Of a stretch of 59,842 bases of DNA, positions 11,673-57,621 are shown one piece after another (within the stretch, counting starts at the first letter, position 1; every line of letters begins with the position of its first letter). The stretch lies in the IMG/VR virus record IMGVR_UViG_3300030109_000604, positions 1 through 59,842 of that record; one strand, 5' to 3'. The notes below the pieces were generated by a model. It searched no databases. It was not told where the DNA came from and was given only the letters and a program-made list of their open reading frames with translations. The stretch is from a virus (lineage: Duplodnaviria; Caudoviricetes). Made by a program: the position numbers and the translations under genes.

Positions 11673-12965
11673 TTAGTTGAGGTGAATGGTCTTGCCGAAA
11701 TCGGCGGTGCGAGAGGTGGTCGATACCCAAAGCACCGGATAGTCTGGCTCATCAGGCATCGAACATTCGAGGTCGGTCAGATAGATAAACGAGTCGACCT
11801 CGATTTCGTTCTCATAAACGTAATCGAATGGCGGTCGGAAGTCGGTACCGCCGCCGCCGTACCGGCCAAGGTCTTGCTGATCAATCGAGGCCGGGTCATC
11901 GTACTCGTCAACGTGGGCGATGCGCGTGTCGCAATAGATCACGGTGACCTGTTCGGCGTCCACGTCCTGGCATACTGACTTGGCCTCCGACATCAATGCA
12001 GCATACTCATCTTGAGATACGCTGGCGCTGGTATCGACGGCGATCACGATATGACCGACGCCCTCACGTATGCGGCGCGGCGCAAAGATACCGCGCTGTA
12101 CCCATTTCTTGTCGGCACGCCGCCAATCGTAGCGGTGGTCGGAACCCTTACCCAGAAAACGGGCAAGCTCGTGACGCCAATCAACCTTGGCGTCACGCAG
12201 ATCGTCAACGTATGCGGCAAGGGAACCGGGCAATTTGCCTTGTGCCTTGGCGATCTGCGCAGCGTTTTGAACGTCAGCCATAAGCTCCCGCTCCATCGCC
12301 GCAATCTCTTGGGCATCAAGGGGTTCGCCATCGTCACCTTCAGCGTCGATCACAACGCCGGTTCCGGTATCGTCGGCGAAAGGATCACCGCCGCCACCTT
12401 GCGGGGCATCGTCATCATCACCGCCGCCCGTGTCGCTATCATCACCGCCACCTTGCGGGGTATCATCGTCACCGCCGCCCGGCTGGGGTGATGTGGGTTG
12501 CTCCTGAGCAAGCTCGTCGGCCAGAATCTCAGTTGAATATTCAGACCGGTCACGCTTCAGATCACCGACGGCGCTCCAATCAAGGGCACTGGCGGGTAAC
12601 GACTTGCTATCCTTGCGCAGCAAGTCGTTGATGATCACGTCACCGCAGATATTCCATAACTTGGGGTCACGAGAACCGCGCCGCAGGTGGTGGAAAAATA
12701 TCTTGTGATAAACCTCGTGAGCAAGAACGGCTTGCACCTCGTGATCCGATAGGGTCAGCGCAAAGTCGGGATTGATATAAAGACTCTTGCCGTCGGTTGC
12801 CATGGTCGGCAACGTGTCCGTCCAAACGGTCGGCATTTGGATCAACATTGCAGCCGTGAACGGGTCCGACATTTGCAGTTTGATCTTGGCACGGGTGACG
12901 TGCCGCACCGCCTCAGCAGACGGATCGACAACCCCATCATTTAATTGTGATACAAGTGAACTCAT
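11673..12965 (-). CDS. DUF2201-type metallopeptidase plus VWA domain protein
   Basis: TMATDG, HEVYH (HExxH), acidic Gly linker, MIDAS DTSAS, GGGTDF.P.F, YLTD. Confidence 0.9.
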   Translation of the reverse strand: MSSLVSQLNDGVVDPSAEAVRHVTRAKIKLQMSDPFTAAMLIQMPTVWTDTLPTMATDGKSLYINPDFALTLSDHEVQAVLAHEVYHKIFFHHLRRGSRDPKLWNICGDVIINDLLRKDSKSLPASALDWSAVGDLKRDRSEYSTEILADELAQEQPTSPQPGGGDDDTPQGGGDDSDTGGGDDDDAPQGGGGDPFADDTGTGVVIDAEGDDGEPLDAQEIAAMERELMADVQNAAQIAKAQGKLPGSLAAYVDDLRDAKVDWRHELARFLGKGSDHRYDWRRADKKWVQRGIFAPRRIREGVGHIVIAVDTSASVSQDEYAALMSEAKSVCQDVDAEQVTVIYCDTRIAHVDEYDDPASIDQQDLGRYGGGGTDFRPPFDYVYENEIEVDSFIYLTDLECSMPDEPDYPVLWVSTTSRTADFGKTIHLN

Positions 12966-12967
12966 TT

Positions 12968-13876
12968 TCAACCTCCAAAAAAACCAGCAAGGCGGTCGGT
13001 GATTTCCGACGCCTCAGATTGCACAATCTTGACCACCTCAGCATTTGAGGGGTTTTTGAACTCCGCAACATCGTGACGGAGCAATTCGCTGCCCTTGATA
13101 TCATCGACAAGGGCCGCAAGGTCAGGGTCACCGGCAACATTCAGCGCCGGTAAGATGTTCACGAGGTCACCAAGATTGGTGATCATCGTGTCGTAAAGGC
13201 GGCGGTTCGCCTCCGTCTTTTTCTTGCCGCCAGCCTTGCGAACTTCCACAGACTCGTATCCGTCCAAGCATGTGGCGATATGCGAGACCGCCTTGTGCAA
13301 CCGCTCGAACGTGTGACGGGTAGCACTTCGCAACAAGTCGGCGTTGTCGTCGTCGATTTCCGCCCGTATCTGCGCGGCCTTGTCGTCGACAATCTTGGCA
13401 TAGAAGTTAGCGCCGGTCGGCACGTCCCGCGCCCGCCATTTGAATTCATACATGGATTCAAGATCGGCGTAGCGTAGGTAGTCATCCTCCCGAAACATGC
13501 CGTTGAGTTGCTTGCGGCGCTGTTCGATTAGCTGGGGAAGTTTCCCGGCCAAGTCGGAGACGGCGGTATTAAACCGCCGCTTGTGATCATCCATGGTGGT
13601 CATGTACTTATCGAAAAGCTCAACGGGTAACAGGCGATAGGTGCCATCCCATGGGAGGGTCAACCGCTCGTGGTCACCGCGTGCCGCACGTGCCGCACGC
13701 TGCGGCCCATCCACCATGCGCGGATCAAGTAGGTGCTTGTCATACTTGCCAGCGTTGTGCGAAGCGGCATGCTCCGCGTTGATCTTGTCGGTCACGTCCC
13801 GATCCTTGCGCGTGAACCCGGCGCAATTGATCTGCAATGTGATAAGCATCGCGTTTTCTTGAAGAATATTTTCCAT
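12968..13876 (-). CDS. DUF3150-like helical protein
   Basis: K.LL...TLPW...RLLP...F...Y...LN...DP.L pattern; sits between the AAA and VWA genes. Confidence 0.7.
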   Translation of the reverse strand: MENILQENAMLITLQINCAGFTRKDRDVTDKINAEHAASHNAGKYDKHLLDPRMVDGPQRAARAARGDHERLTLPWDGTYRLLPVELFDKYMTTMDDHKRRFNTAVSDLAGKLPQLIEQRRKQLNGMFREDDYLRYADLESMYEFKWRARDVPTGANFYAKIVDDKAAQIRAEIDDDNADLLRSATRHTFERLHKAVSHIATCLDGYESVEVRKAGGKKKTEANRRLYDTMITNLGDLVNILPALNVAGDPDLAALVDDIKGSELLRHDVAEFKNPSNAEVVKIVQSEASEITDRLAGFFGG

Positions 13877-13880
13877 GTTC

Positions 13881-14930
13881 TCAGCCCTCCCCGATGAGGT
13901 TAGATGTTTCGATCAGGATGTCGGTAAATCCTGTCGTTGATACTTTCTTGCCCGGATCACCAGCGGCCTCGTTCCGACGTAACAGCGCGGAAACAGCAAC
14001 CGAATGATACTCAGGCGGCAAGCGCTTGATATAGGCGGCGCATGCCTTGGCGGTTTTGTTGGTGACGGAGGCAATCAAGCTCCCGATCATGGCGTACCGC
14101 ACGTCGGCTTTCTCAGGTACCGGTGCCGCATCAGGGTTAGCGAACACCTCAGATGGTGCCACAAGGTCACGCCAAATGCGCAGGAACCCGGTGAACTTCG
14201 CTTGCTCACCAACACCGATTGCACCGGCAATCATTGGCATTTCGATTGCCTTAGGCACCTCAGCCTTGATCACGTCGGACACTGCGACCCATGTACGAGG
14301 GCAGGGGAACGGCGTGCCGTCGGCAGCATGGCGGTGTAGCGCATCAGGAAACTGGCTCAGGTACGTGGTGACCTCAGGTGCTACGTCGATCTTGGCAAAG
14401 TGTGCCAGCGTCGGATCAAGCTCCGCCTCAACGGTCACAATGTTGAACCGGGAAACCAAATGCTCAGGTATCGACTTAACCGCCGCCTTGTCCGACTTGC
14501 GGTTGCCGTTGGCAATGATCAGGCAATCCTCAGGGAGACGGTGACCAGCTACACGCCGATCCCATATGACCTGAGCGCTAGCCTTTTGAACGTCGATATC
14601 ACACTGGGGGAATTCCTCAAATATGATCAGCGACTTGGAACCGGCCTTGGCGGCGTCGATCACGTTGCGGCCCCAAACGGGTAGCAATTGATCCATGGCG
14701 TCACCGACTTGGGTGACCCAGCCAGTGACCTCAGCCGGTTGATAGTTTGAAAGGTTGACCACCTCGACATGCCAGCCCTCATCACGGGCGACTTGAACCG
14801 GCGCTTGCGACTTGCCGACGCCAACGGGACCCAAGATCAGGAGCGGGAAACCGTCAACGCGCTCAGACTGAATCGCCATAGCGGCGCGAATGTAGGCGGG
14901 TACGTTTGCAATACTGATAATGTTTTCCAT
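13881..14930 (-). CDS. MoxR-like AAA+ ATPase
   Basis: Walker A GPVGVGKS, Walker B IIFEEF, ANGNR, LVSRF, PCPRTW; start at ATG 14930 after SD GAGGA. Confidence 0.9.
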   Translation of the reverse strand: MENIISIANVPAYIRAAMAIQSERVDGFPLLILGPVGVGKSQAPVQVARDEGWHVEVVNLSNYQPAEVTGWVTQVGDAMDQLLPVWGRNVIDAAKAGSKSLIIFEEFPQCDIDVQKASAQVIWDRRVAGHRLPEDCLIIANGNRKSDKAAVKSIPEHLVSRFNIVTVEAELDPTLAHFAKIDVAPEVTTYLSQFPDALHRHAADGTPFPCPRTWVAVSDVIKAEVPKAIEMPMIAGAIGVGEQAKFTGFLRIWRDLVAPSEVFANPDAAPVPEKADVRYAMIGSLIASVTNKTAKACAAYIKRLPPEYHSVAVSALLRRNEAAGDPGKKVSTTGFTDILIETSNLIGEG

Positions 14931-14942
14931 GATATCCTCATA

Positions 14943-14997
14943 AGCGTTTCGGCGGTGCTGCCGCCTCATCAGTGCCCTAGCAACAAGGGCAGACACT
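14943..14997 (-). ncRNA. type III hammerhead ribozyme
   Basis: Minus strand: AGUGUC^UGCCCU(UGUUGCU)AGGGCA CUGAUGA GGCGG(CAGCA)CCGCC GAAACGCU; full core, three stems, GUC cleavage triplet. Confidence 0.92.
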
Positions 14998-15000
14998 ACT

Positions 15001-15200
15001 TGTTCAAACGGGGCCGGTTATTCTTTCCCACCGTAAGGGCTACTTTGTGCAGGCTACCGGGGCTTTAGGCTTGGGCGTTATTCGCCTCATCGTTACCGGA
15101 TCAAAGCCATCGTTCACAAAGCATCGCTAGGCTTGCTAGGCCTGAGTTTCACGGTTAGCTGGAACCTCCTGATCAAAATTTGCGACCTCGTTGCCGCAGG
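15001..15200 (-). ncRNA. candidate structured leader/ncRNA
   Basis: Nested helices ACCGUGA/UUACGGU, UGCUUUGUG/CACAAAGUA, GGCUUUG/UAAAGCC, GGCG/CGCC and 5' hairpin UGCGGC/GUCGCA; no convincing ORF. Confidence 0.55.
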
Positions 15201-15201
15201 C

Positions 15202-15232
15202 ATCTTATGGCAGATTGTAATCTTCTTTGCAA
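15202..15232 (-). promoter_or_regulatory. putative promoter of the leader/AAA operon with an operator-like palindrome
   Basis: TTGCAA followed by CATAAG at 17 bp or TAAGAT at 19 bp; AGATT-AC-AATCT inverted repeat in the spacer. Confidence 0.45.
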
Positions 15233-15461
15233 CCCCTTTATTCAGGAATGTTCCATATTATTTGGGGTCACTATTCCCAGCCTTCTAGCCGGTCACTTGA
15301 TAGGTGACGTATGGCAGCGGGAAACCTTACAGCATGATCTATTCTGCTGAGTCTTTATATATAGGGTCCACACAAGGGGTATCTGAGGGGTCCGGTACAG
15401 CCTAGCCTAGCCGTTAACATGCTCTAAGAAGAATGTCCTTGACATTGGAAAAGTGTAACAA

Positions 15462-15523
15462 GATCAAGCACTTAGGTACCCACAAAAGAAGTGTGGTCTT
15501 ATTTAGCCTGTAAGTCATTGATA
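15462..15523. promoter_or_regulatory. two inverted IHF-consensus sites
   Basis: gATCAAGCACTTA (15462-15474, 1 mismatch) and TATCAATGACTTA on minus (15511-15523, perfect WATCAANNNNTTR). Confidence 0.55.
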
Positions 15524-15645
15524 TTAAAGGCGGAATCCTGATAGGCCCAAGTCGGAGGCCTCTGGTGGGGTAGGTGCTGAGAACCTCTAATCATGCTCTA
15601 TGGGGCTTAAAATGGACGACAGAGCGTCAAGCACAAAAGCGCCAT

Positions 15646-15672
15646 TGTGGATAACTTTCTGTGGATAACTTT
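15646..15672. promoter_or_regulatory. tandem perfect DnaA boxes
   Basis: TGTGGATAACTTT twice (15646, 15660); TGTGGATAA is the reverse complement of TTATCCACA. Confidence 0.65.
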
Positions 15673-15797
15673 TGGAGGCCAGAATATTGAAGGGGACCGC
15701 TCCGCAGCATATGGTTCGCCGGTTTAGCGAAAACCCTTTTCGCCATTTGGCGCTCCATGCTATAGGGGAGCGGTACACAATAGAGGGGTGTAAGGGT

Positions 15798-16322
15798 ATG
15801 ACTGAAAAGAAGCCGTATCTCACGTTAGTGGACGGGTCACTGGTACAGCAACGCAACGTGAAGCTAACCGCCAAGCAAGCTGGGTTTATCAGGTCTGTTA
15901 TGGGAACCGACGACAACGGGAAACCGAACACGCTATCGCAAGCGTACCGGGACAACTATGATTGTTCCAACATGACGGATAAGACTGTTCACGAGAAAGC
16001 CAGCAAGCTAGCTGCGCAGGACAAGATAGCGGCAAGGCTTAGGGCCTTAGAGCAGCAAAAGGATGACACTGCGCTGCGCTCCGCGCACTCGCGCCTGGAA
16101 TTCATTCTTGAGCGCCTTGAGATAGAAGCGCTAGGCCAAGGGGACGACAGTAACAGCGCCAGCCGGGTCCGTGCCTTGGAGCTACTTGGCAAACTGGCGC
16201 ACGGCGGCGGTTCTCTGTTTCAGGAGCGCATTGCAACTGAGGATACGCGGGACAGCGGCGCGATACGTGAGGAACTCGAACAGCGCTTGTCCCGCCTACT
16301 GGCAGGGAACAGCGCAGAATAA
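15798..16322 (+). CDS. terS: terminase small subunit
   Basis: KLTAKQAGF...SQAYRDNY...ASKL...KIAARL...SRVRALELLGK; start ATG 15798. Confidence 0.8.
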   Translation: MTEKKPYLTLVDGSLVQQRNVKLTAKQAGFIRSVMGTDDNGKPNTLSQAYRDNYDCSNMTDKTVHEKASKLAAQDKIAARLRALEQQKDDTALRSAHSRLEFILERLEIEALGQGDDSNSASRVRALELLGKLAHGGGSLFQERIATEDTRDSGAIREELEQRLSRLLAGNSAE

Positions 16323-49272: not shown

Positions 49273-52200
49273 ATGGCACAATTATTTGAGTTTGAGGGGC
49301 AACAATATTCTTTCCCCGATGACGCAACTCAAGAAGAAATCTTTGGTTTTTTAGATCAAGCATCCCCTGCGCCAACTCCTGAGGAACCTTCCGAAAAAGG
49401 GTTTCTTGATAGAACTGGAGAGATGCTCAAGGGCGGCGCTCAAAGGTTTGCAGGGTCCAGTGCCTATGGCCTAGCGTCGGGTCTTGAATATTTTGGAGCT
49501 TCTCCAGAAACTCAAGAAGAACTAAAAACCTATGCTGCGCAACAGGAGGAGTCTCTAAAGGGCATATCTCCAATTAAACCTTTGTTAGAAGCAGAGAGCT
49601 TGGGGGATGTAGCATCTTCGGGTTATGACTATTTAGTGCAGTCAAGTCCTTACATGGGCGCAATGTTAACGGGCGCTTACGCTGGGGGCAAAGCCGCTGC
49701 CGCCCTGCCAATACCTCACCCGGCAGTTAAGGCCATTACTATGTTCGCGGGAGGATTGCTGGGGGGCGCAGCGGCAACGTATAATGCGTTCTTTGGGGAC
49801 AATGTTAAAGAAGCGGAGCAAGTTAAAGGAAGAAAGCTAACCAAAGAAGAAACAGAGGGTGCTGCGGTGGCTGCGGTAGGGCAGTCTATTGCTGATGCAG
49901 TTATATCAAAGATACTGCCGTCTAGGGGCAGTCCAAAACTAATTACAAATACGCTTAAAAAGCTAATGCAAGGTGGTGCTGTTGAGGGGACCACTGAAGT
50001 TTTTCAAGAGTCTCTTTCCATACTGCAAGCTAATGATTTTGATTTAGATTCTTTAAGGACGCCTGAGGCCACGTATCGTTTAAAAGAAGCGGGCCTAGCC
50101 GGTATGGTTATTGGAGCGCCTATTAGCGCTGCTACGGGTCCGTTTACTAGAGAGGCTCCTCCAACAGCCCCACCGGTACTTCCCGATGTTACTGAGGGTC
50201 TACAAGAAACATTAGATGTAGAGACTGAAACTACCCTTGAGGAAGATACTGCTGATGGGGAGCAGTCCGTTACAGAAGCGGATATGGCTTCCGAGGGTCA
50301 ACTGGATTTAAATTTTGCATCTGAAGAGGTTGCGCAGGACGAGGTAGAATCTGCGGTTACGCCGCCAGCGAGTGACGAGTTCGTAACTGAGCAGGTTGAG
50401 GGTGGGGTGGATGAAACAGTCGCTCCCGATGTAGGGCCTGTTGACATTGCCGGTGTATCTGATGAAGTCGTAGACGAACAGTTGCGACAAATTGTTGCAG
50501 ACCCACCCCCTGAGGGGCCTGCCGCTCCTGATCTGGGGGAGCTTGACCTAGAAGTTACGGAGCCTGTCTCTCCAGAGTTTCAGCCGAGTACATTAGAAAC
50601 ATTTCCTGTTGCTGAAGAACAATTGGAACTGTTTGATACTTCTACGATTGAGGCGCTTACTGCTTCTGCGCAGTCGGCTACTCCGAAGCTATCTATTCCT
50701 GAGCATATTGTAAAAAAGATAATTGAGAACTTGAACCGCCGCCTTCAGGCACGCGGTCTGGCCGATGACGTGTCGTTAATTATAACTGATACAATATTCC
50801 GGCCTGAGATGGGGGCAGACCCAGACTCCACACCCAGTGAAGCTAAGTACATTCCCCGTACACAGTCGGCTAAGGGCGCAATAATCTTAGCCCTTGATGC
50901 TCTCCCCGAATCCACCCTGAGGAAACCCAAAGAGATGGCAACCTATCTTGCCGGTCTCACGGATCACGAGACTGTTCACTCATGGGTGGACATTGGGGTG
51001 ATAAACGACAACGACATGCAGGCTTTGTCTAAGGCGGCGTCCCTAGCCCCGCACTGGTCTGATCCTAATAAGACAGTGATGGACGTAATAGCAGATGTGT
51101 ACCCTGATCTTGATGCTGAGGGGCAGATAGAGGAAGCGGCGGCTGAATTATTCAGGGGCCATGCGGCTGGTAACGTAGTTCTCAAGGGACGGCCCCTGTC
51201 AATATGGCAACGCATTATGAACTTCTTCAGGAATCTAAAAGGAGGCCTAGCAGAAGCTGACATATACAAGGCGGCTCAGGTCTTCGACAGGGTTGGCATG
51301 TCACCTGACTTTGTATCGGCTGCGCCCACTGCTCCCGCTGATGACTTCGGAGATGAGTTGGTTGAGGCGGTGAGTGGTAAGGATAAGTCGCTAGGCGAAA
51401 AGTTACGCGACGACAAGGAAGCTCGCTCATTTCAGGGTGGTCCCAATATGTGGAAGCCCGAACCCGGCAAGCCGTTTGGTACGCCTCAACTTAAATTTGC
51501 GGGTACTGTTGGGGGTCAAGCGCATGGTTGGGGGTTTTATAATTCTCAAGATGTAGAAGTTGGGAAAGACTTTGCAGGAAGAAGCGGCAGGGGGCAGCTT
51601 CTTGAGCTTGATATTCCAGATGATGCGATAGCTAAATTCATGGACGAAAGCCTGCCACTGAGCAAACAATCTCCGAGTGTGCAACAGGCAATCGGGCGTA
51701 TTTATGATCGCGTTTACGACCGTGGATTTAGACAGTCTATGAGGCAACTCATGGAAGGAAAAGATCCAACAGGTTTTAGAATTTATCGGGACATTGGTAC
51801 TTACGAAAAAATATCTGATAAAGAAATAAGTTTGATGTTGGCCGAAGAAGGGATTCCGGGACTTAAATATGGCGCTGATCCCCGCTTAAGTGGTAGCCCA
51901 ACACCAGAAGGTGTTGCCATGCGTCTTATAGAACTTACGGGTAGTGTTGATGGTGCCATTGCTGAGGCTCAAGCCCGTATAGCTGATGCAGAGCAGAGAG
52001 GAGTTCTTGATCGGGCTGACTCAAGGTTCAAAGTGCCTGCTGCTTTGGAGATCCTGCAAGAACGAGGTGATCCTCGTAGGTATAACTACGTGATCTGGGA
52101 TCAAGATGTTCTAAATAGAGTAGAGGTTAAAGGCGTTAATGAAGTACCGGTCAATCAGGTTGCTGTTAACCTTTCCTCTGCGACAGAGAGTATCCTTGGT

Positions 52201-55200
52201 CTCAAGGATCTACAGGATCAGGCCAACACTGGAGACATAGAAGCACAAGGACTGCTTCAAGATGTAGCTTCAGACTCTTTATCCTACTTGTTGAGCGGTA
52301 TTCCTGATGTACGTGTACTGCCCACGCCCGCACAAGGTTTGTACTTTGGTGATCTAGAGCCATCAATAGGGCTAGACGTTGGTTTCGTGCAGGATAACAA
52401 GAAAGACGTTCTTGCTTCTCTGGCTAAATTTGCCAGCAACTTCAATCAAGAACAGATTCATGTTCGCACTGGTGCTGACGAGAATACAGACGTTGGGTTT
52501 ACTTATCCTGATGGGTCCTATAATACTGCTTCAGTGCGGTTCTCTTTGCGTGAGCCTCTCACCCGCCAAGAGATTGAGGAAGTAATATCTAGCTCAGGTT
52601 TGGTGGGTGTAACTGCTACAGATACTTATTTAGATGCGTACTATGTAGGAGATCCTAGTGATGCAGCCGCCATCCAACAATTCAAACAAGCCGCAGACCG
52701 AGCCTCAAAATCTCTTGAAGGACGCACTAGCGGAGTTGACCCAGCAATTCAAAGACTCTGGGCATACGGTGAGGGATATGGAGCCACCAACCCGTACTCA
52801 GACATACGAGGCCCACTTCGTCCCCCGGAAGCGAACGAAGGGAACCGAACCAGTTGGAGAATAGGTCAGCGCCTACGTGGCCGTCCGTTTATTCCGGTTC
52901 CTTCTCAGCAGACCTTAACCCCTGAGCAGCGCGATCTTCAGTCTGAGATAGCTGATGCGTTTGATGATATGCCCCTTAATGATCTGGGCAATCCAGACGT
53001 GCGCAGAGCCTATGATGAACTGGCGCGAGAGCTAGACAGTCAGTACAGAGCGCTCCCTATCAAGGTGGAAGTATTCGAGGGAGAAGGCGAGCCGTATGCA
53101 AACAGTGCGGCTATGCGAGAAGACATAAACCAGAACAATCATTTGTTTATTTATGGCACTAACGCAGACACCTTCGGCCCTGAGGGTGTGGTCTACGACA
53201 ACCATCCCATGCTTAAGCAGTCGTCATACACTGATGTAAATGGCTACCCCTTGCTTATCAACGATCTGTTGAGGGCAGTGCACGACTATTACGCGCATAC
53301 GATGGCACCAAATAAGTTTGGTCCGTTGGGCGAGGAAGCTGCATGGCAGAATCATATGAGGATGACCCGAAGCCCGTGGGCTAGATGGGCGCTTACCTCA
53401 GAAACAAGGGGCCAGAACAGTTGGGTTAATTTCCACAGGCTCGCTATTGACCCAAGTAAGCGTGCGGACTCGCTGCCAATTACGGAGCGTGAGTTCTCTG
53501 AGCAGAAGACGGCGTTGCTCCCCATAGAATACACGATGACCGGCGATCCTGTTATTGATGAAGAGATGCTCGACATAGCATCTCCCGATAAGGAAGCGCG
53601 AAACTTTCTTGTTGGCCGTTTTTACAAAAAAGAAACGATGTTCGGAGTTCAGTTCGTTAATGAAGATGGTCTTGGTTTGGTTGGAGGGGTGCCAAGTGGA
53701 AGGGCCAGCACACCGGGGACAGCAAACCTTCGTTTTGCGATTATGGATCAGAACATTAGAGGGGAGGACAACAAGCCTATTGCTCTTGGCGAGACAAAAA
53801 TAAATGTCAAGCTGGAGGATGGCGAATTAACTGAAGAGATAGAGGGCATTGTTGACATAGAAATAGAAGATGCCTACCGCAACACGGGCATCGGAAGCCG
53901 CGTAATCAACTCTTTGTTAGAGAATACCACTGACGGTCTGAACATCTACGATATTCAAGAAAGCGCATTGCCATATTGGCGGGACAAGCAGGGGACCTCA
54001 ATTGTTGAAAGAAGTTCTGCTGAGGGTGACAACCTAATTGATGGATTTATTCCGAAAGGTGCGCCTGCGCCTAGTGTGGAAAGAACGGCGGCTTCTCCTG
54101 ATAAAGAAGCGCGGCGCTTTGTTGACTTGCCTAAGGAAGCGCAGCGACTAGTCAGGACCACTGATGCTAACGGTAGGCAGACCGCTAGGTTCGGAACGAT
54201 CCAGTACAAAGGGAACAATGTCCCTGTAGTTCTACACATGGGTACACCAGAAGACTCTGGTATGCGCCATGCGGATAAACATCTTCTTAATTTTGAGACG
54301 TTCACTCCGTATGAGTCTGTTCCCATAGCGCTGAAGTCTTTGATGACGGCATCGTTCAACCCTGAGCGGCAAGCCCCCCGTAAATCTCCTGCCCTTACAT
54401 TTACAGAGGGTGGCGACAGGGGCCAAGCAGGCAAGTTTACCATTGAATGGCAGGACCCAGCATCTCGGTTCCCCATAAAGGCGGCATTTACATTACTGGA
54501 GCCAAACACAATCAGTGGGGTAGAGGTTCCTGTCTTTGCAATGGATACCATCTTTGTAAATACGGGTAGAGAAACTCCCGCTTATCAGGCAGCGGAAACC
54601 ACGATCAGACGCGAAGGCGTGATAGAGCTAGATAAGATCTCACGCCCCGGCAAAGAGGCCGTGCTAGATGCAGTCGCTAACTTCAAGCAGAAATCAAAGA
54701 AAGAAAAGTTTGCTAGGCCCATATCGCAAGAGTTCTCCATCAAGTCCACGCCTACTGATATGGGTATCGACATGCCCTCAGGTATGGTCGCGCCTCAGCA
54801 GCATGAAACCTTGGGCGAAAAGGTTCTTACTAATCTTGGCATGGTTGGCGGCAGTCCTTTAGATAGCTTCGGAGATTTCTTTAAGTGGTTCCGCACAAAC
54901 TTTGTAGATATGTGGGACCCAATCCGTCGCACTGAAGTTGGCCTGTCAGAGCAGGATGAAAAGAACCAGAATTTCCTGAGCGCATCTAGTTCAGCATGGG
55001 CGGCTATGCGAATGGCGCGTAGAGGAACTGCTGTTACAGCATACTCCCTGTCAAAAGGTGTGCCGACTTACCGTGACGGCTATACCTCGGTGAAGGATAT
55101 ACCGGAGGACGCCTTACAAACTAACATAGATGGCACAACAGAGGTCAGTCGAATAGCTGGAACCGATACGGGCTTGATCCCCATCATTGAGCCGCTGAGG

Positions 55201-57621
55201 AAAGGCAATCGTTTCGAGGCATTTCATCTGTATGCGATAGCCCGTAGGGCGGCGCGTCTTATTCGTGAAGGGCGGGAGCGTCTTCTCACTCAGGATCAGA
55301 TTGCGCAGTATCTCGCCATGGGGAACAGCCGTGCTGAGATAGCGCAGATCATGGATGTTTCAGAGGCTGAGGTAGATACTCTCTTGGCTGGGCGTGATAT
55401 TAAGTTCAATGATGATTTCTCTGATATCTTCCAAGATTATCAAGTATGGAACGGTTACTTCGTAGATTTCTTGGTAGACACAGGGGTTCTTACTAGAGAG
55501 AAAGCCGACATATGGAAAGAGTCTGCCGATTATATTCCGTTCTATCGCCAACTTGATCCGTCATACAAGGACACTGCTGGCGAAAGCCCCATGTTTGAAG
55601 GGCTAATGGCAAGCGCACCTCCCCCCGAACTAAAGGGAAAGGGGATGATATGGTCGATCATAGCAAAGGATGCGCAGGGCAACGAGACGATGCTGCCCAC
55701 CACGTTCAATCAATCTGAAAAGAATGTAGCTGAGGCATACGCGCAGAAATACAAAGATGAAACAGGGATGGACGTAAGTGTAGTTCGCAAGGGCATGCCG
55801 ATTGGCGGCTTCCTAGATACCCTTACAGAAAATGCTTTGTCTGCTGTTCAGACAGGCATGATGAACGTGGGTATGCAACGGACAATGCGGAACCTTGTTT
55901 TGGCAGATCCCCAGACAACCGTGAGAACGAAACCGGGGACGCCGGGTTCAGTTACATTCCACGTCAAGGGTGAGCCAATAACGCTATACGTGGGTGATCG
56001 TGCGCTTTATTCGTCTCTTAACAATTACCTTACCAATCAGAGGATCAACCCGTTTGTCAATTTCTTGGGGATGCCTGCTCGTTTTCTGAGGGAAATGATC
56101 ACCCGATCACCAGACTTCATGGCGGCAAACATGCTAAGAGATTCGTTGTCAGCATGGGTAACTAGTGGTCGGGACACCAAAGCCTTGATAGGAACCATTG
56201 GTGGTTTCTCTCAGGCCCTACGTGGTAGCACTTCTGCTGATGCGCTGGCTGCGGCTGGTCTGATGACGGGGTTTGATTTTGGTGGAGACCCCACCAAGAT
56301 GACCGATTTTATAAACAAAGAACTGCTTAAGTATAAGTATCCTTCAGCAGTGGGACGGTTTGCACGTAACCCATTGAAGGCCCTGTGGGATGCAACAGGT
56401 ACAGCTTCCCGTGCTTCGGATGCAGCTACTCGTATTGCTGTGTATGAGAGAGTCCTTAAAGAAACAGGCGATGAAGCACAGGCTATCTTTGAGGCGCAGG
56501 AAGTTATCAACTTCTCAGCACGGGGGCAGTCAGCACTAATACAAAACCTTGCGGTGGTGGTGCCGTTCTTGAACGCTCGTATCCAAGGCTTGGATGTTCT
56601 GTATCGTTCTTCGATGGGGCGCAAAGGGTTTGCAGCGAGGCCTGAGTCCGACATCGTGAAGAGAAGGTTTATGTTCAGAGCCATGTTGGTTGCCATGAGT
56701 AGCGCAGCGTACTGGGCCATGGTTCACGATGATGAGGAATACATAAACCAAAACCCAGAGATCAAAGATAACTACTGGATAATTCCGTCGGCGTGGATAC
56801 CCGGTTATGACGGACCACCCCTCAGGTTCCCGATACCGTTTGAGGTAGGGTTCTTGTTTAAGACCATACCTGAAAGGGTCATGGCTTTGTATTTTGGCAA
56901 GGATGTGCCTCGTGATATTGCGCAGACATTGCGGCGGGGTCTGGTGAATACGTTTGAGTTTAATCCAATCCCTCAAGCAGTGTTGCCGCCTCTTGAGGTG
57001 ATAGCCAATTACAGTTTCTTTACAGGGCGCAAGATTGAAGGACAGTATCTTGAGGGACTGTTGCCGGGATACCGTTATAGCAGCAGGACCTCTGCTCTCG
57101 CTATGGAACTTGGTCAGATGTTTAATTATTCCCCTGTAAAAATTGATCATATGATTAACGGTTATGGCGGCACCTTGGGCACAGTAGTCATTGATACTGT
57201 AGATCAAGTTATGAGGGGAGCATCGGCTGATTTGGGAGAACGCCCCGCTAAACAACTTAGCGAGTACCCGTTTATTAAAAGATTTTTAGCAACGCCAGAT
57301 GCACGAGGCCTTGTCACACAGTTCTACGAGTTGAGAAGAGAAGTTGGTCAGGCGGTTGATACCGTCAAAATGTTAGAGAAGGGCGAGCTTACGTTAGCAG
57401 AAGGCGCAAAGTTGGCAGATAAGAAAGTAAAACTGATTGCTATAGAAAATGTGGTAGAAGATATATCTAGCCTTCTTGTTAAATTGAGAAATGAGCGTAA
57501 GCGGATTCAAGAGTCGAACATAAGTGCTGAAGCGAAACGACAATTGATTGACGAGGTCACAGCTATGGAGCTTATGGCTGTTGAGTCTATCCCGGAACTA
57601 AGGCAAGAGGCGTTTCAGTAG
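49273..57621 (+). CDS. large polyvalent virion protein (zincin, ART-like, GNAT, BECR-like and LPD38-like modules)
   Basis: HETVH...EEAAAE; GQAHGWGFY...NYVIWD; RAVHDYYAH...GEEAAW; YRNTGIGSRVI; GMRHADKH; C-terminal VPFLNARIQG...P.PFEVG. Confidence 0.8.
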   Translation: MAQLFEFEGQQYSFPDDATQEEIFGFLDQASPAPTPEEPSEKGFLDRTGEMLKGGAQRFAGSSAYGLASGLEYFGASPETQEELKTYAAQQEESLKGISPIKPLLEAESLGDVASSGYDYLVQSSPYMGAMLTGAYAGGKAAAALPIPHPAVKAITMFAGGLLGGAAATYNAFFGDNVKEAEQVKGRKLTKEETEGAAVAAVGQSIADAVISKILPSRGSPKLITNTLKKLMQGGAVEGTTEVFQESLSILQANDFDLDSLRTPEATYRLKEAGLAGMVIGAPISAATGPFTREAPPTAPPVLPDVTEGLQETLDVETETTLEEDTADGEQSVTEADMASEGQLDLNFASEEVAQDEVESAVTPPASDEFVTEQVEGGVDETVAPDVGPVDIAGVSDEVVDEQLRQIVADPPPEGPAAPDLGELDLEVTEPVSPEFQPSTLETFPVAEEQLELFDTSTIEALTASAQSATPKLSIPEHIVKKIIENLNRRLQARGLADDVSLIITDTIFRPEMGADPDSTPSEAKYIPRTQSAKGAIILALDALPESTLRKPKEMATYLAGLTDHETVHSWVDIGVINDNDMQALSKAASLAPHWSDPNKTVMDVIADVYPDLDAEGQIEEAAAELFRGHAAGNVVLKGRPLSIWQRIMNFFRNLKGGLAEADIYKAAQVFDRVGMSPDFVSAAPTAPADDFGDELVEAVSGKDKSLGEKLRDDKEARSFQGGPNMWKPEPGKPFGTPQLKFAGTVGGQAHGWGFYNSQDVEVGKDFAGRSGRGQLLELDIPDDAIAKFMDESLPLSKQSPSVQQAIGRIYDRVYDRGFRQSMRQLMEGKDPTGFRIYRDIGTYEKISDKEISLMLAEEGIPGLKYGADPRLSGSPTPEGVAMRLIELTGSVDGAIAEAQARIADAEQRGVLDRADSRFKVPAALEILQERGDPRRYNYVIWDQDVLNRVEVKGVNEVPVNQVAVNLSSATESILGLKDLQDQANTGDIEAQGLLQDVASDSLSYLLSGIPDVRVLPTPAQGLYFGDLEPSIGLDVGFVQDNKKDVLASLAKFASNFNQEQIHVRTGADENTDVGFTYPDGSYNTASVRFSLREPLTRQEIEEVISSSGLVGVTATDTYLDAYYVGDPSDAAAIQQFKQAADRASKSLEGRTSGVDPAIQRLWAYGEGYGATNPYSDIRGPLRPPEANEGNRTSWRIGQRLRGRPFIPVPSQQTLTPEQRDLQSEIADAFDDMPLNDLGNPDVRRAYDELARELDSQYRALPIKVEVFEGEGEPYANSAAMREDINQNNHLFIYGTNADTFGPEGVVYDNHPMLKQSSYTDVNGYPLLINDLLRAVHDYYAHTMAPNKFGPLGEEAAWQNHMRMTRSPWARWALTSETRGQNSWVNFHRLAIDPSKRADSLPITEREFSEQKTALLPIEYTMTGDPVIDEEMLDIASPDKEARNFLVGRFYKKETMFGVQFVNEDGLGLVGGVPSGRASTPGTANLRFAIMDQNIRGEDNKPIALGETKINVKLEDGELTEEIEGIVDIEIEDAYRNTGIGSRVINSLLENTTDGLNIYDIQESALPYWRDKQGTSIVERSSAEGDNLIDGFIPKGAPAPSVERTAASPDKEARRFVDLPKEAQRLVRTTDANGRQTARFGTIQYKGNNVPVVLHMGTPEDSGMRHADKHLLNFETFTPYESVPIALKSLMTASFNPERQAPRKSPALTFTEGGDRGQAGKFTIEWQDPASRFPIKAAFTLLEPNTISGVEVPVFAMDTIFVNTGRETPAYQAAETTIRREGVIELDKISRPGKEAVLDAVANFKQKSKKEKFARPISQEFSIKSTPTDMGIDMPSGMVAPQQHETLGEKVLTNLGMVGGSPLDSFGDFFKWFRTNFVDMWDPIRRTEVGLSEQDEKNQNFLSASSSAWAAMRMARRGTAVTAYSLSKGVPTYRDGYTSVKDIPEDALQTNIDGTTEVSRIAGTDTGLIPIIEPLRKGNRFEAFHLYAIARRAARLIREGRERLLTQDQIAQYLAMGNSRAEIAQIMDVSEAEVDTLLAGRDIKFNDDFSDIFQDYQVWNGYFVDFLVDTGVLTREKADIWKESADYIPFYRQLDPSYKDTAGESPMFEGLMASAPPPELKGKGMIWSIIAKDAQGNETMLPTTFNQSEKNVAEAYAQKYKDETGMDVSVVRKGMPIGGFLDTLTENALSAVQTGMMNVGMQRTMRNLVLADPQTTVRTKPGTPGSVTFHVKGEPITLYVGDRALYSSLNNYLTNQRINPFVNFLGMPARFLREMITRSPDFMAANMLRDSLSAWVTSGRDTKALIGTIGGFSQALRGSTSADALAAAGLMTGFDFGGDPTKMTDFINKELLKYKYPSAVGRFARNPLKALWDATGTASRASDAATRIAVYERVLKETGDEAQAIFEAQEVINFSARGQSALIQNLAVVVPFLNARIQGLDVLYRSSMGRKGFAARPESDIVKRRFMFRAMLVAMSSAAYWAMVHDDEEYINQNPEIKDNYWIIPSAWIPGYDGPPLRFPIPFEVGFLFKTIPERVMALYFGKDVPRDIAQTLRRGLVNTFEFNPIPQAVLPPLEVIANYSFFTGRKIEGQYLEGLLPGYRYSSRTSALAMELGQMFNYSPVKIDHMINGYGGTLGTVVIDTVDQVMRGASADLGERPAKQLSEYPFIKRFLATPDARGLVTQFYELRREVGQAVDTVKMLEKGELTLAEGAKLADKKVKLIAIENVVEDISSLLVKLRNERKRIQESNISAEAKRQLIDEVTAMELMAVESIPELRQEAFQ

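Follow-up and report, generated by a model that had tools for sequence, protein, structure and literature searches.

RiboJ-type insulators are engineered 5' UTR hammerheads, derived from a plant satellite RNA, that remove a variable leader from an mRNA. The put RNAs of phage HK022, about 70 nt long, work in cis on RNA polymerase; no ribozyme follows them. Cleavage by self-cleaving ribozymes yields a 5' product that ends in a 2',3'-cyclic phosphate and a 3' product that begins with a 5'-OH, and the effect of the latter on mRNA stability depends on host RNases. In bacterial 5' UTRs the glmS ribozyme is a self-cleaving RNA whose cleavage gives the mRNA a different 5' end. For all other self-cleaving ribozymes of bacteria, and for hammerheads in bacteria and phages, a 2019 review by Weinberg et al. 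calls the biological roles largely elusive (PMC6765202). Many hammerheads are found in prophages, often flanking genes, as reported by Perreault et al. in 2011; the same report describes a hammerhead in the haloviruses HF1/HF2, 13 nt before the first early gene, where the mapped 5' end of the transcript equals the cleavage site (PMC3088659).

The locus described here lies in the window, by which we mean the whole stretch of DNA analysed, a complete 59,842-bp virus record of a tailed phage. With the phage type III hammerheads of Rfam family RF00008 it shares the CUGANGA and GAAA core, the GUC cleavage triplet, an open stem III with stems I and II capped, and a location between phage genes (PMC3088659). 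As in HF1/HF2, the hammerhead lies a few nucleotides upstream of the gene that opens an early polycistronic transcript, but the halovirus element comes from an archaeal virus and is a core variant needing high salt, and the available part of that report describes no conserved or interchangeable upstream leader (PMC3088659). The glmS ribozyme is one ligand-dependent RNA of fixed sequence that is tied to one gene, whereas here the upstream domain is swapped between phages and no ligand-sensing element was found. RiboJ-type insulators likewise make the mRNA 5' end and translation independent of upstream sequence; here, however, no engineering is involved, and conservation extends to the leader that is removed. 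The put RNAs, set beside this locus by their description, are similar in being structured RNAs directly downstream of phage early promoters. A pattern scan of viral contigs returned 48 stretches whose core is similar, and many of these are complete type III hammerheads directly before an RBS and ATG. Together with the prior reports, these phage 5' UTR hammerheads make the arrangement itself one of a known kind. A full-text literature search, judged by title and the start of the abstract, found no account of a conserved or interchangeable leader RNA that such a ribozyme releases; the supplementary alignments of PMC3088659 may already list members of the present hammerhead sub-family. We suggest that the cassette slot and the conserved type A leader described below represent a novel version of the hammerhead arrangement known from phage 5' UTRs.

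Replication and recombination genes run along the minus strand between about 14930 and 57, and packaging and structural genes lie on the plus strand from about 15672 onward. Between them, 14930-15672 is the sole large divergent intergenic region of the genome, and the leader and ribozyme lie inside it, ahead of an operon encoding an AAA ATPase and a VWA-like protein (Table 1). The sample origin is marine metagenomes: 20 of 24 listed runs contain at least part of a searched 1.1-kb stretch, and all labelled runs are marine or seawater; none of the runs with the sequence is an RNA run. Strain variants resembling two of the relatives discussed below, L002 and L003, are present in DNA contigs (four runs). 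Matches to the AAA protein in cultured phages, mostly N4-like, do not exceed 31% identity within the matched part; no relative of this protein was found in prokaryote genomes, and the GenBank phage collection gave no DNA match to window positions 13800-16000. Neither tRNA nor tmRNA genes were detected in the window or in 8 loci. A plus-strand ORF of 2782 aa (49273-57621) matches only PHROGs of unknown function and, given also the distant N4-like affinity of the AAA protein, might encode a giant virion protein. On the plus strand of the intergenic region TGTGGATAA, which reads as the E. coli DnaA-box consensus on the opposite strand, occurs twice (15646-15654 and 15660-15668), 5 nt apart and just upstream of a small-terminase-like ORF, and it is found at the corresponding place in L004. 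The pair could be a DnaA-dependent origin or a regulatory site of the divergent region. A plus-strand terminator-like hairpin (15480-15496, with a T-run to about 15505) lies in mid-intergenic position, about 40 nt downstream of a TTGACA at 15439-15444, and could mark a very short plus-strand transcript or be a barrier between the divergent units.

Table 1. Features of the leader, the ribozyme and the operon behind them (positions in the window).
Feature	Position	Strand	Evidence or remark
Putative early promoter	15204..15232	-	-35 TTGCAA 15232-15227, 17-nt spacer, TG 15212-15211, -10 CATAAG 15209-15204
5' terminal hairpin UGCGGC AACGAG GUCGCA, then AAAUUUU	15181..15198	-	Also reported by terminator scan
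Shine-Dalgarno-like AGGAGG, no conserved ORF behind	15165..15170	-	GGAGG invariant in 5/5 type A leaders
Hairpin P_a: AGGC 15143-15140, loop, GCCU 15132-15129	15129..15143	-	Both-side changes in 2/4 pairs
Long imperfect hairpin, outer helix 15123-15115/15049-15041	15041..15123	-	Compensatory changes, insertions
Inner parts of long hairpin	15108-15105/15055-15052, 15099-15096/15060-15057, apical 15086-15083/15077-15074	-	Lie inside the outer helix
CCC...GGG hairpin 15039-15037/15029-15027 and invariant single-stranded GGGAAAGAAUAnCCGGCC block	15012..15039	-	Near-invariant in 5/5 type A leaders
Type III hammerhead	14941..14999	-	Rfam RF00008 37.3 bits, E 3e-6, full length; covariation in nine copies
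RBS GAGGA and ATG of AAA ATPase gene	14939-14935; 14930-14928	-	
Downstream operon AAA ATPase / 302-aa / VWA-like	11673..14930	-	Domain and PHROG matches
AAA ATPase gene	14930-13881	-	phrog_1297 ATPase, E 3.6e-64; AAA_5 weakly; first minus-strand gene
302-aa protein gene	13876-12968	-	Second gene of operon
DUF2201_N + DUF2201 (VWA-like) protein gene	12971-11673	-	Third gene of operon

The elements of the ribozyme follow in the order GUC, stem I hairpin, CUGAUGAG, stem II hairpin, CGAAAC and the 3' strand of stem III, and the motif predicts cleavage between C14992 and U14991. Its 3' end, at 14941, falls 1 nt before the RBS of the AAA ATPase/VWA operon. At Rfam gathering thresholds no family is reported in the window; the RF00008 match was obtained with E-value thresholds on 14700-15700 (Hammerhead_3, E 3.1e-6). 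Nine copies are known from the window and its relatives, and all of them miss the RF00008 gathering score of 48.5 bits, which sets them apart from the family: the window reaches 37.3 bits, the eight scored sequences span 25.7-43.6, and the L065 hammerhead is not listed for RF00008 at E ≤ 5. The columns of the catalytic core (CUGANGA ... GAAA) are invariant in 9/9 sequences, position 7 being U or C, as the consensus allows. The NUH cleavage triplet is GUC in eight of the nine and GUA in L065, and three helices surround the core, with stem III open. On an alignment that was fitted to the model, and so favours the structure, 93.3% of cells are paired and both sides have changed in 8 of 17 pairs, a count reached by none of 500 shuffles; for covariation the alignment scores 0.353 and the shuffles 0.174, and again 0/500 come up to the observed value. 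A model built from the nine homologous copies (R1) finds one copy in the window (83.5 bits) and one in each of eight relatives (range 62-84 bits), and in seven loci that are more distant it finds no copy. All three stems and the core are present in all nine sequences in which the AAA protein is 75-97% identical to that of the window, and in none of the examined relatives at 72% or below. Judged from sequence, the ribozyme adds a new member to a class already known.

Both hairpin loops of the sub-family carry a motif that is kept in all nine copies, GCU in loop I (14971-14986) and AGCA in loop II (14953-14961, both minus strand), a further difference from RF00008. By eye, these could form a loop-loop pseudoknot of 3-4 bp, as has been reported for many hammerheads (PMC3088659). 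A second hammerhead was considered in the leader, where CGAUGAGGCG...CGCC resembles the core and stem II; it was rejected, as that core is not kept in L002 or L004 and R1 finds a single copy per locus.

Upstream of the leader, the first-pass annotation of the window had marked a promoter-like element. A consensus promoter scan does not list 15232-15204, but its position is conserved: TTGCWA (TTGCAA or TTGCTA), a spacer of exactly 17 nt and a hexamer recur at the same place in 9/9 hammerhead-bearing sequences. The spacer sequence varies and ends in TGn in eight of the nine, and the -10 hexamers are CATAAG, TCTAAA, TCTAAG, TATAAG or GACAAG. Transcription is predicted to start near 15198 ± 2. Between leader and ribozyme, nothing that could be a promoter is conserved among the hammerhead-bearing relatives, and the terminator scan found no terminator there. 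With the sole conserved promoter-like element upstream of the leader, leader, hammerhead and AAA gene are therefore most simply placed on one transcript, which agrees with the earlier proposal that the hammerhead would define the 3' end of the leader, at C14992.

Searches with the AAA protein identified 23 loci (9 from viral contigs, 14 from metagenome contigs), of which 21 were examined; L010, the 3' part of the contig of L009, and L077, which is without upstream DNA, were left out. Counting the window, they give 14 different upstream sequences. The hammerhead is present in nine of these (window, L002, L003, L004, L009, L065, L068, L070 and L072) and absent from five (the L006 group, L007, L008, L075 and L076). 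Among the nine, four unrelated inserts occur between the conserved promoter and the conserved ribozyme. Cassette type A (window, L002, L003, L004 and L072) is about 195-240 nt long, and type B (L065 and L009) about 180 nt; types C (L068, about 231 nt) and D (L070, about 174 nt) are each represented by a single sequence. Between the window and L009, the 150 nt upstream are 93% identical, the promoter 97%, and the stretch from the ribozyme to the ATG 97%, whereas the cassettes are 59% identical, the level that the window cassette shows against its own shuffles (mean 60%, maximum 65%). L065 has an AAA protein 97% identical to that of the window, yet contains the type B cassette. The boundaries of the cassettes fall at the predicted transcript start and at stem III of the ribozyme. 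By blastn, no trace of types B, C or D was detected in any other of 122 loci, nor in the GenBank phage collection.

All four cassette types open with a helix that lies no more than 3 nt from the predicted start. In types B and D a helix of 8-10 bp is predicted to close the cassette, in which the first nucleotides of the transcript pair with those 1-2 nt before stem III. The cassettes other than type A look like RNA as well. The minimum free energy (MFE) of type D is unusually low (z = -4.37), and that of type B gives a z near -2. The two type B sequences differ in their helices by changes that, in all cases examined, keep the pair; one is compensatory (GGCUGG/CCAGCC vs GGCCGG/CCGGCC) and four are wobble changes. 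A different conserved leader (GGGACTGCTTA.CTATGTTCCTTTTTTACTTCAACCAACTATAGGAGA) is present in two loci without hammerhead whose AAA proteins are 71-72% identical to that of the window, L006 (2940-3000) and L007 (2330-2395); in L007 it stands before an additional gene that has been inserted ahead of the AAA gene.

The type A leader can be aligned in five sequences. It is 76% identical between the window and L004 and 81% between the window and L072 (78% and 85.5% by blastn over 159 nt), while the four-fold degenerate sites of the adjacent AAA gene are 40% identical and the whole gene 71-72% at the nucleotide level. The excess over four-fold sites implies that the leader is under purifying selection. 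Compensatory changes, by RNAalifold and our own count, affect two helices and five pairs, of which the unedited MAFFT alignment shows three; they come from 5 distinct sequences with essentially one deep split. In P_a, AGGC/GCCU is replaced by GAGC/GCUC in L004 and L072, and 20/20 cells are paired. The outer helix of the long hairpin contains one pair changed on both sides in the unedited alignment and three after one gap was moved manually in L004 and L072, with a bulged A; one of the three, G-C vs A-U, separates L004 from L072 and is thus an independent event. L002 has a perfect 6-bp hairpin inserted inside the long hairpin, and L002 and L003 have hairpin insertions of different length just 3' of it. 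The 5' terminal hairpin, as read from the alignment, is kept in the window, L002 and L003 and adopts a different register in L004 and L072. We regard the type A leader as a candidate for a new family of non-coding RNA, and the purifying selection on it is clear.

The overall folding energy of the leader is unremarkable. The MFE of 14992-15232 is -58.4 kcal/mol, compared with -64.6 after shuffling (z = +1.38), and of 200 shuffled sequences 184 were equally stable or more so; among the type A leaders, z is -0.67 in L002 and +0.91 to +2.09 in the other four. The annotation had described the RNA as of no recognised family, and this holds: an Rfam search of 14700-15700 at E ≤ 10 gives only the hammerhead as a credible match, as do searches of the relatives and cassettes. 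A resemblance by eye to RNase P RNA or a cobalamin riboswitch (AGUCC stretches of B, C and D; parts of A) was dismissed, as no Rfam match accompanies it. No significant antisense target was found in the phage genome, the best being 11 nt at E 2.3. A 22-nt pattern from the type A core retrieved from viral contigs only the 4 contigs already known. A looser 16-nt pattern retrieved 54 stretches, including those 4, and in 12 of the others examined by blastn the match extended over only about 16-27 nt around the pattern. In prokaryote genomes the core pattern has 3 matches with unrelated flanks, which were taken as chance. Two seawater runs (X8, X10) contain a contig at depth 42-50 that matches only 15060-15116 (57 nt), with 5 differences, plus about 24 nt on two flanks, which suggests a more divergent, abundant type A relative.

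For the interior of the leader, the annotation had drawn a model of five nested helices. All are present in the window: 15155-15149/15036-15030 (7 bp), 15123-15115/15049-15041 (9 bp), 15108-15102/15067-15061 (7 bp), 15086-15083/15077-15074 (4 bp) and the 5' hairpin 15198-15181, which agrees with the terminator scan. Comparison supports 15123-15115/15049-15041 and gives the other four no such support. Helix 15108-15102/15067-15061 shows uncompensated changes, and the alternative 15108-15105/15055-15052 with 15099-15096/15060-15057 fits as well; helix 15155-15149/15036-15030 is reduced to a 5-bp core. There, the loop UACGG of the CCC...GGG hairpin can alternatively pair with 15154-15150, and only one-sided C-to-U changes are seen. 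Across the five alignable sequences the five-helix model is 85.7% paired with one pair changed on both sides, no better than shuffles. Covariation among the homologous leaders was detected in two helices and, for the model as a whole, stays at the level of shuffles. The sequence motifs listed with the model are all there: CCGGU twice, ACCGG once, the AGGAGG at 15170-15165 without a substantial ORF, and three CGAUG at 15126, 15112 and 15092, where 0.22 would be expected (Poisson P 0.0015; 37 of 5962 sliding 241-nt windows contain three or more). The CGAUG motifs are not conserved in L004. Overall, sequence comparison has partly confirmed the earlier observations and lends partial support to their interpretation; all of this evidence is comparative and comes from nine distinct sequences.

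A leader that is conserved within its type, in a slot whose content is freely exchanged, leads us to see in the ribozyme an insulator and release site, and in the leader an RNA with a function of its own. We tentatively favour, at a little below an even chance, a mechanism in which the promoter drives a structured leader that the hammerhead then releases as a separate immediate-early non-coding RNA, so that the ribozyme would serve as a natural insulator as well as the point of release. A sigma-70-type early promoter with an extended -10 would start a transcript that carries, in order, the 5' hairpin, the type A leader (about 205 nt), the hammerhead, and the RBS and AAA ATPase/VWA operon. Self-cutting after C14992 would separate the leader RNA from the operon mRNA. 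The 5' hairpin and the 2',3'-cyclic phosphate of the released leader should both slow exonucleases, and the operon mRNA would always begin alike, with a 5'-OH and two ribozyme hairpins 1 nt from the RBS, whatever lay upstream. The leader would act after its release, in trans. We infer the start site, cleavage in vivo, the stability of the released RNA and its action in trans.

The functions earlier put forward for the leader, a decoy, an anti-defence RNA or a partner of the AAA/VWA complex, are speculation, and a switch controlling cleavage finds no backing, in that no conserved alternative pairing was found. The existence of at least four interchangeable cassettes weakens the case for a fixed partner of the conserved AAA/VWA proteins; a modular, fast-swapping function fits better. 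The slot might be the RNA counterpart of an anti-defence or host-takeover island, holding interchangeable structured RNAs of about 200 nt that are the first to be made in infection, are released by the ribozyme with both ends protected, are exchanged between related phages by recombination and are each tuned to another host factor or defence, while the hammerhead makes any cassette compatible with the operon; we hold this extension to be quite unlikely. Cassette polymorphism in near-identical phages is the pattern usual at arms-race loci. If released RNAs do act on the host, they would represent a new way for phages to deliver immediate-early RNAs. The locus suggests for phage hammerheads a concrete and testable role, which would be that of an insulator permitting exchange and release of the leader.

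Several other explanations compete with release of a trans-acting RNA. The leader might act in cis before the cut, as a riboswitch-like sensor, an attenuator or a put-type processive antitermination RNA for the early operon of about 15 kb, with the ribozyme tidying the mRNA afterwards. Its 5' UTR position directly after an early promoter would suit such an element, conserved internal loops and single-stranded blocks resemble binding sites, and in B and D the closing helix directly adjoins stem III, whose predicted pairing probability is 0.6-0.8 in B/D contexts vs 0.0-0.09 in type A (window, L002, L003, L004, L072), in a calculation whose indexing was faulty for L003, L068 and L070 and whose nearest-neighbour folding does not model the hammerhead core. 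However, Rfam searches, relaxed to E ≤ 10 on short stretches, matched no cassette to a riboswitch or to any other family, and the lack of a terminator between leader and ribozyme speaks against an element of this kind. The sole leader-core pairing in the MFE structure of the window (AUCAG/CUGAU) is absent from L002, L003, L004 and L072, and a sensor or polymerase element is not expected to be swapped between phages with 97% identical AAA proteins. Action in cis is therefore unlikely in our estimate, though it retains appreciable weight. A coding role is far harder to sustain. The AGGAGG is followed after 12-13 nt by a GUG, and the opposite strand has frames at 15133-15288 (51 aa) and 15180-15350 (56 aa), but among the relatives no frame on either strand is conserved in length and phase. 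The frames opened by the GUG run for 6-16 codons and those on the other strand for 44-104 aa, start codons and ends differ, the part that the frames share is conserved promoter DNA, and it is truncated in L004. That the region encodes a small protein is thus highly improbable.

Conservation could also act on the DNA, on operators, on iterons (the three CGATG) or on part of a replication origin. This reading draws on the location in the only large divergent intergenic region, on the nearby pair of DnaA-box-like TGTGGATAA, on the enrichment of CGATG and on an RNA fold energy that is nothing unusual. Compensatory double changes and hairpin-shaped insertions fit a constraint on RNA (or single-stranded DNA) and not a duplex site, while CGATG is lost in L004, the long-range closing helices of B and D adjoin the ribozyme, and the cassettes are bounded by the predicted transcript start and stem III; we consider a DNA site improbable. 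Alternatively, the leader could be functionless and the ribozyme serve only to define the mRNA 5' end, leaving upstream sequence free to drift or be replaced. Similar hammerheads directly precede the RBS of many different genes elsewhere in phages, cassette turnover is high, and a constitutive 5' UTR ribozyme is explicable by mRNA maturation alone. Free drift is at odds with the 76-81% identity of type A against 40% at synonymous sites, with the compensatory changes, with the pair-preserving differences that are the only ones in the type B helices examined, and with the low folding energy of type D, and a functionless leader accordingly has a low probability.

Near-identical hammerheads also occur in another group of phages, where at 12 loci a hammerhead followed by AAUCAACAA...GGAG precedes at least 5 different proteins. 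In L081, L087, L101, L104, L106, L107, L108, L110 and related loci the ribozyme is followed by AAUCAACAA(UCAAC)...GGAG, which looks like a portable ribozyme-plus-RBS module.
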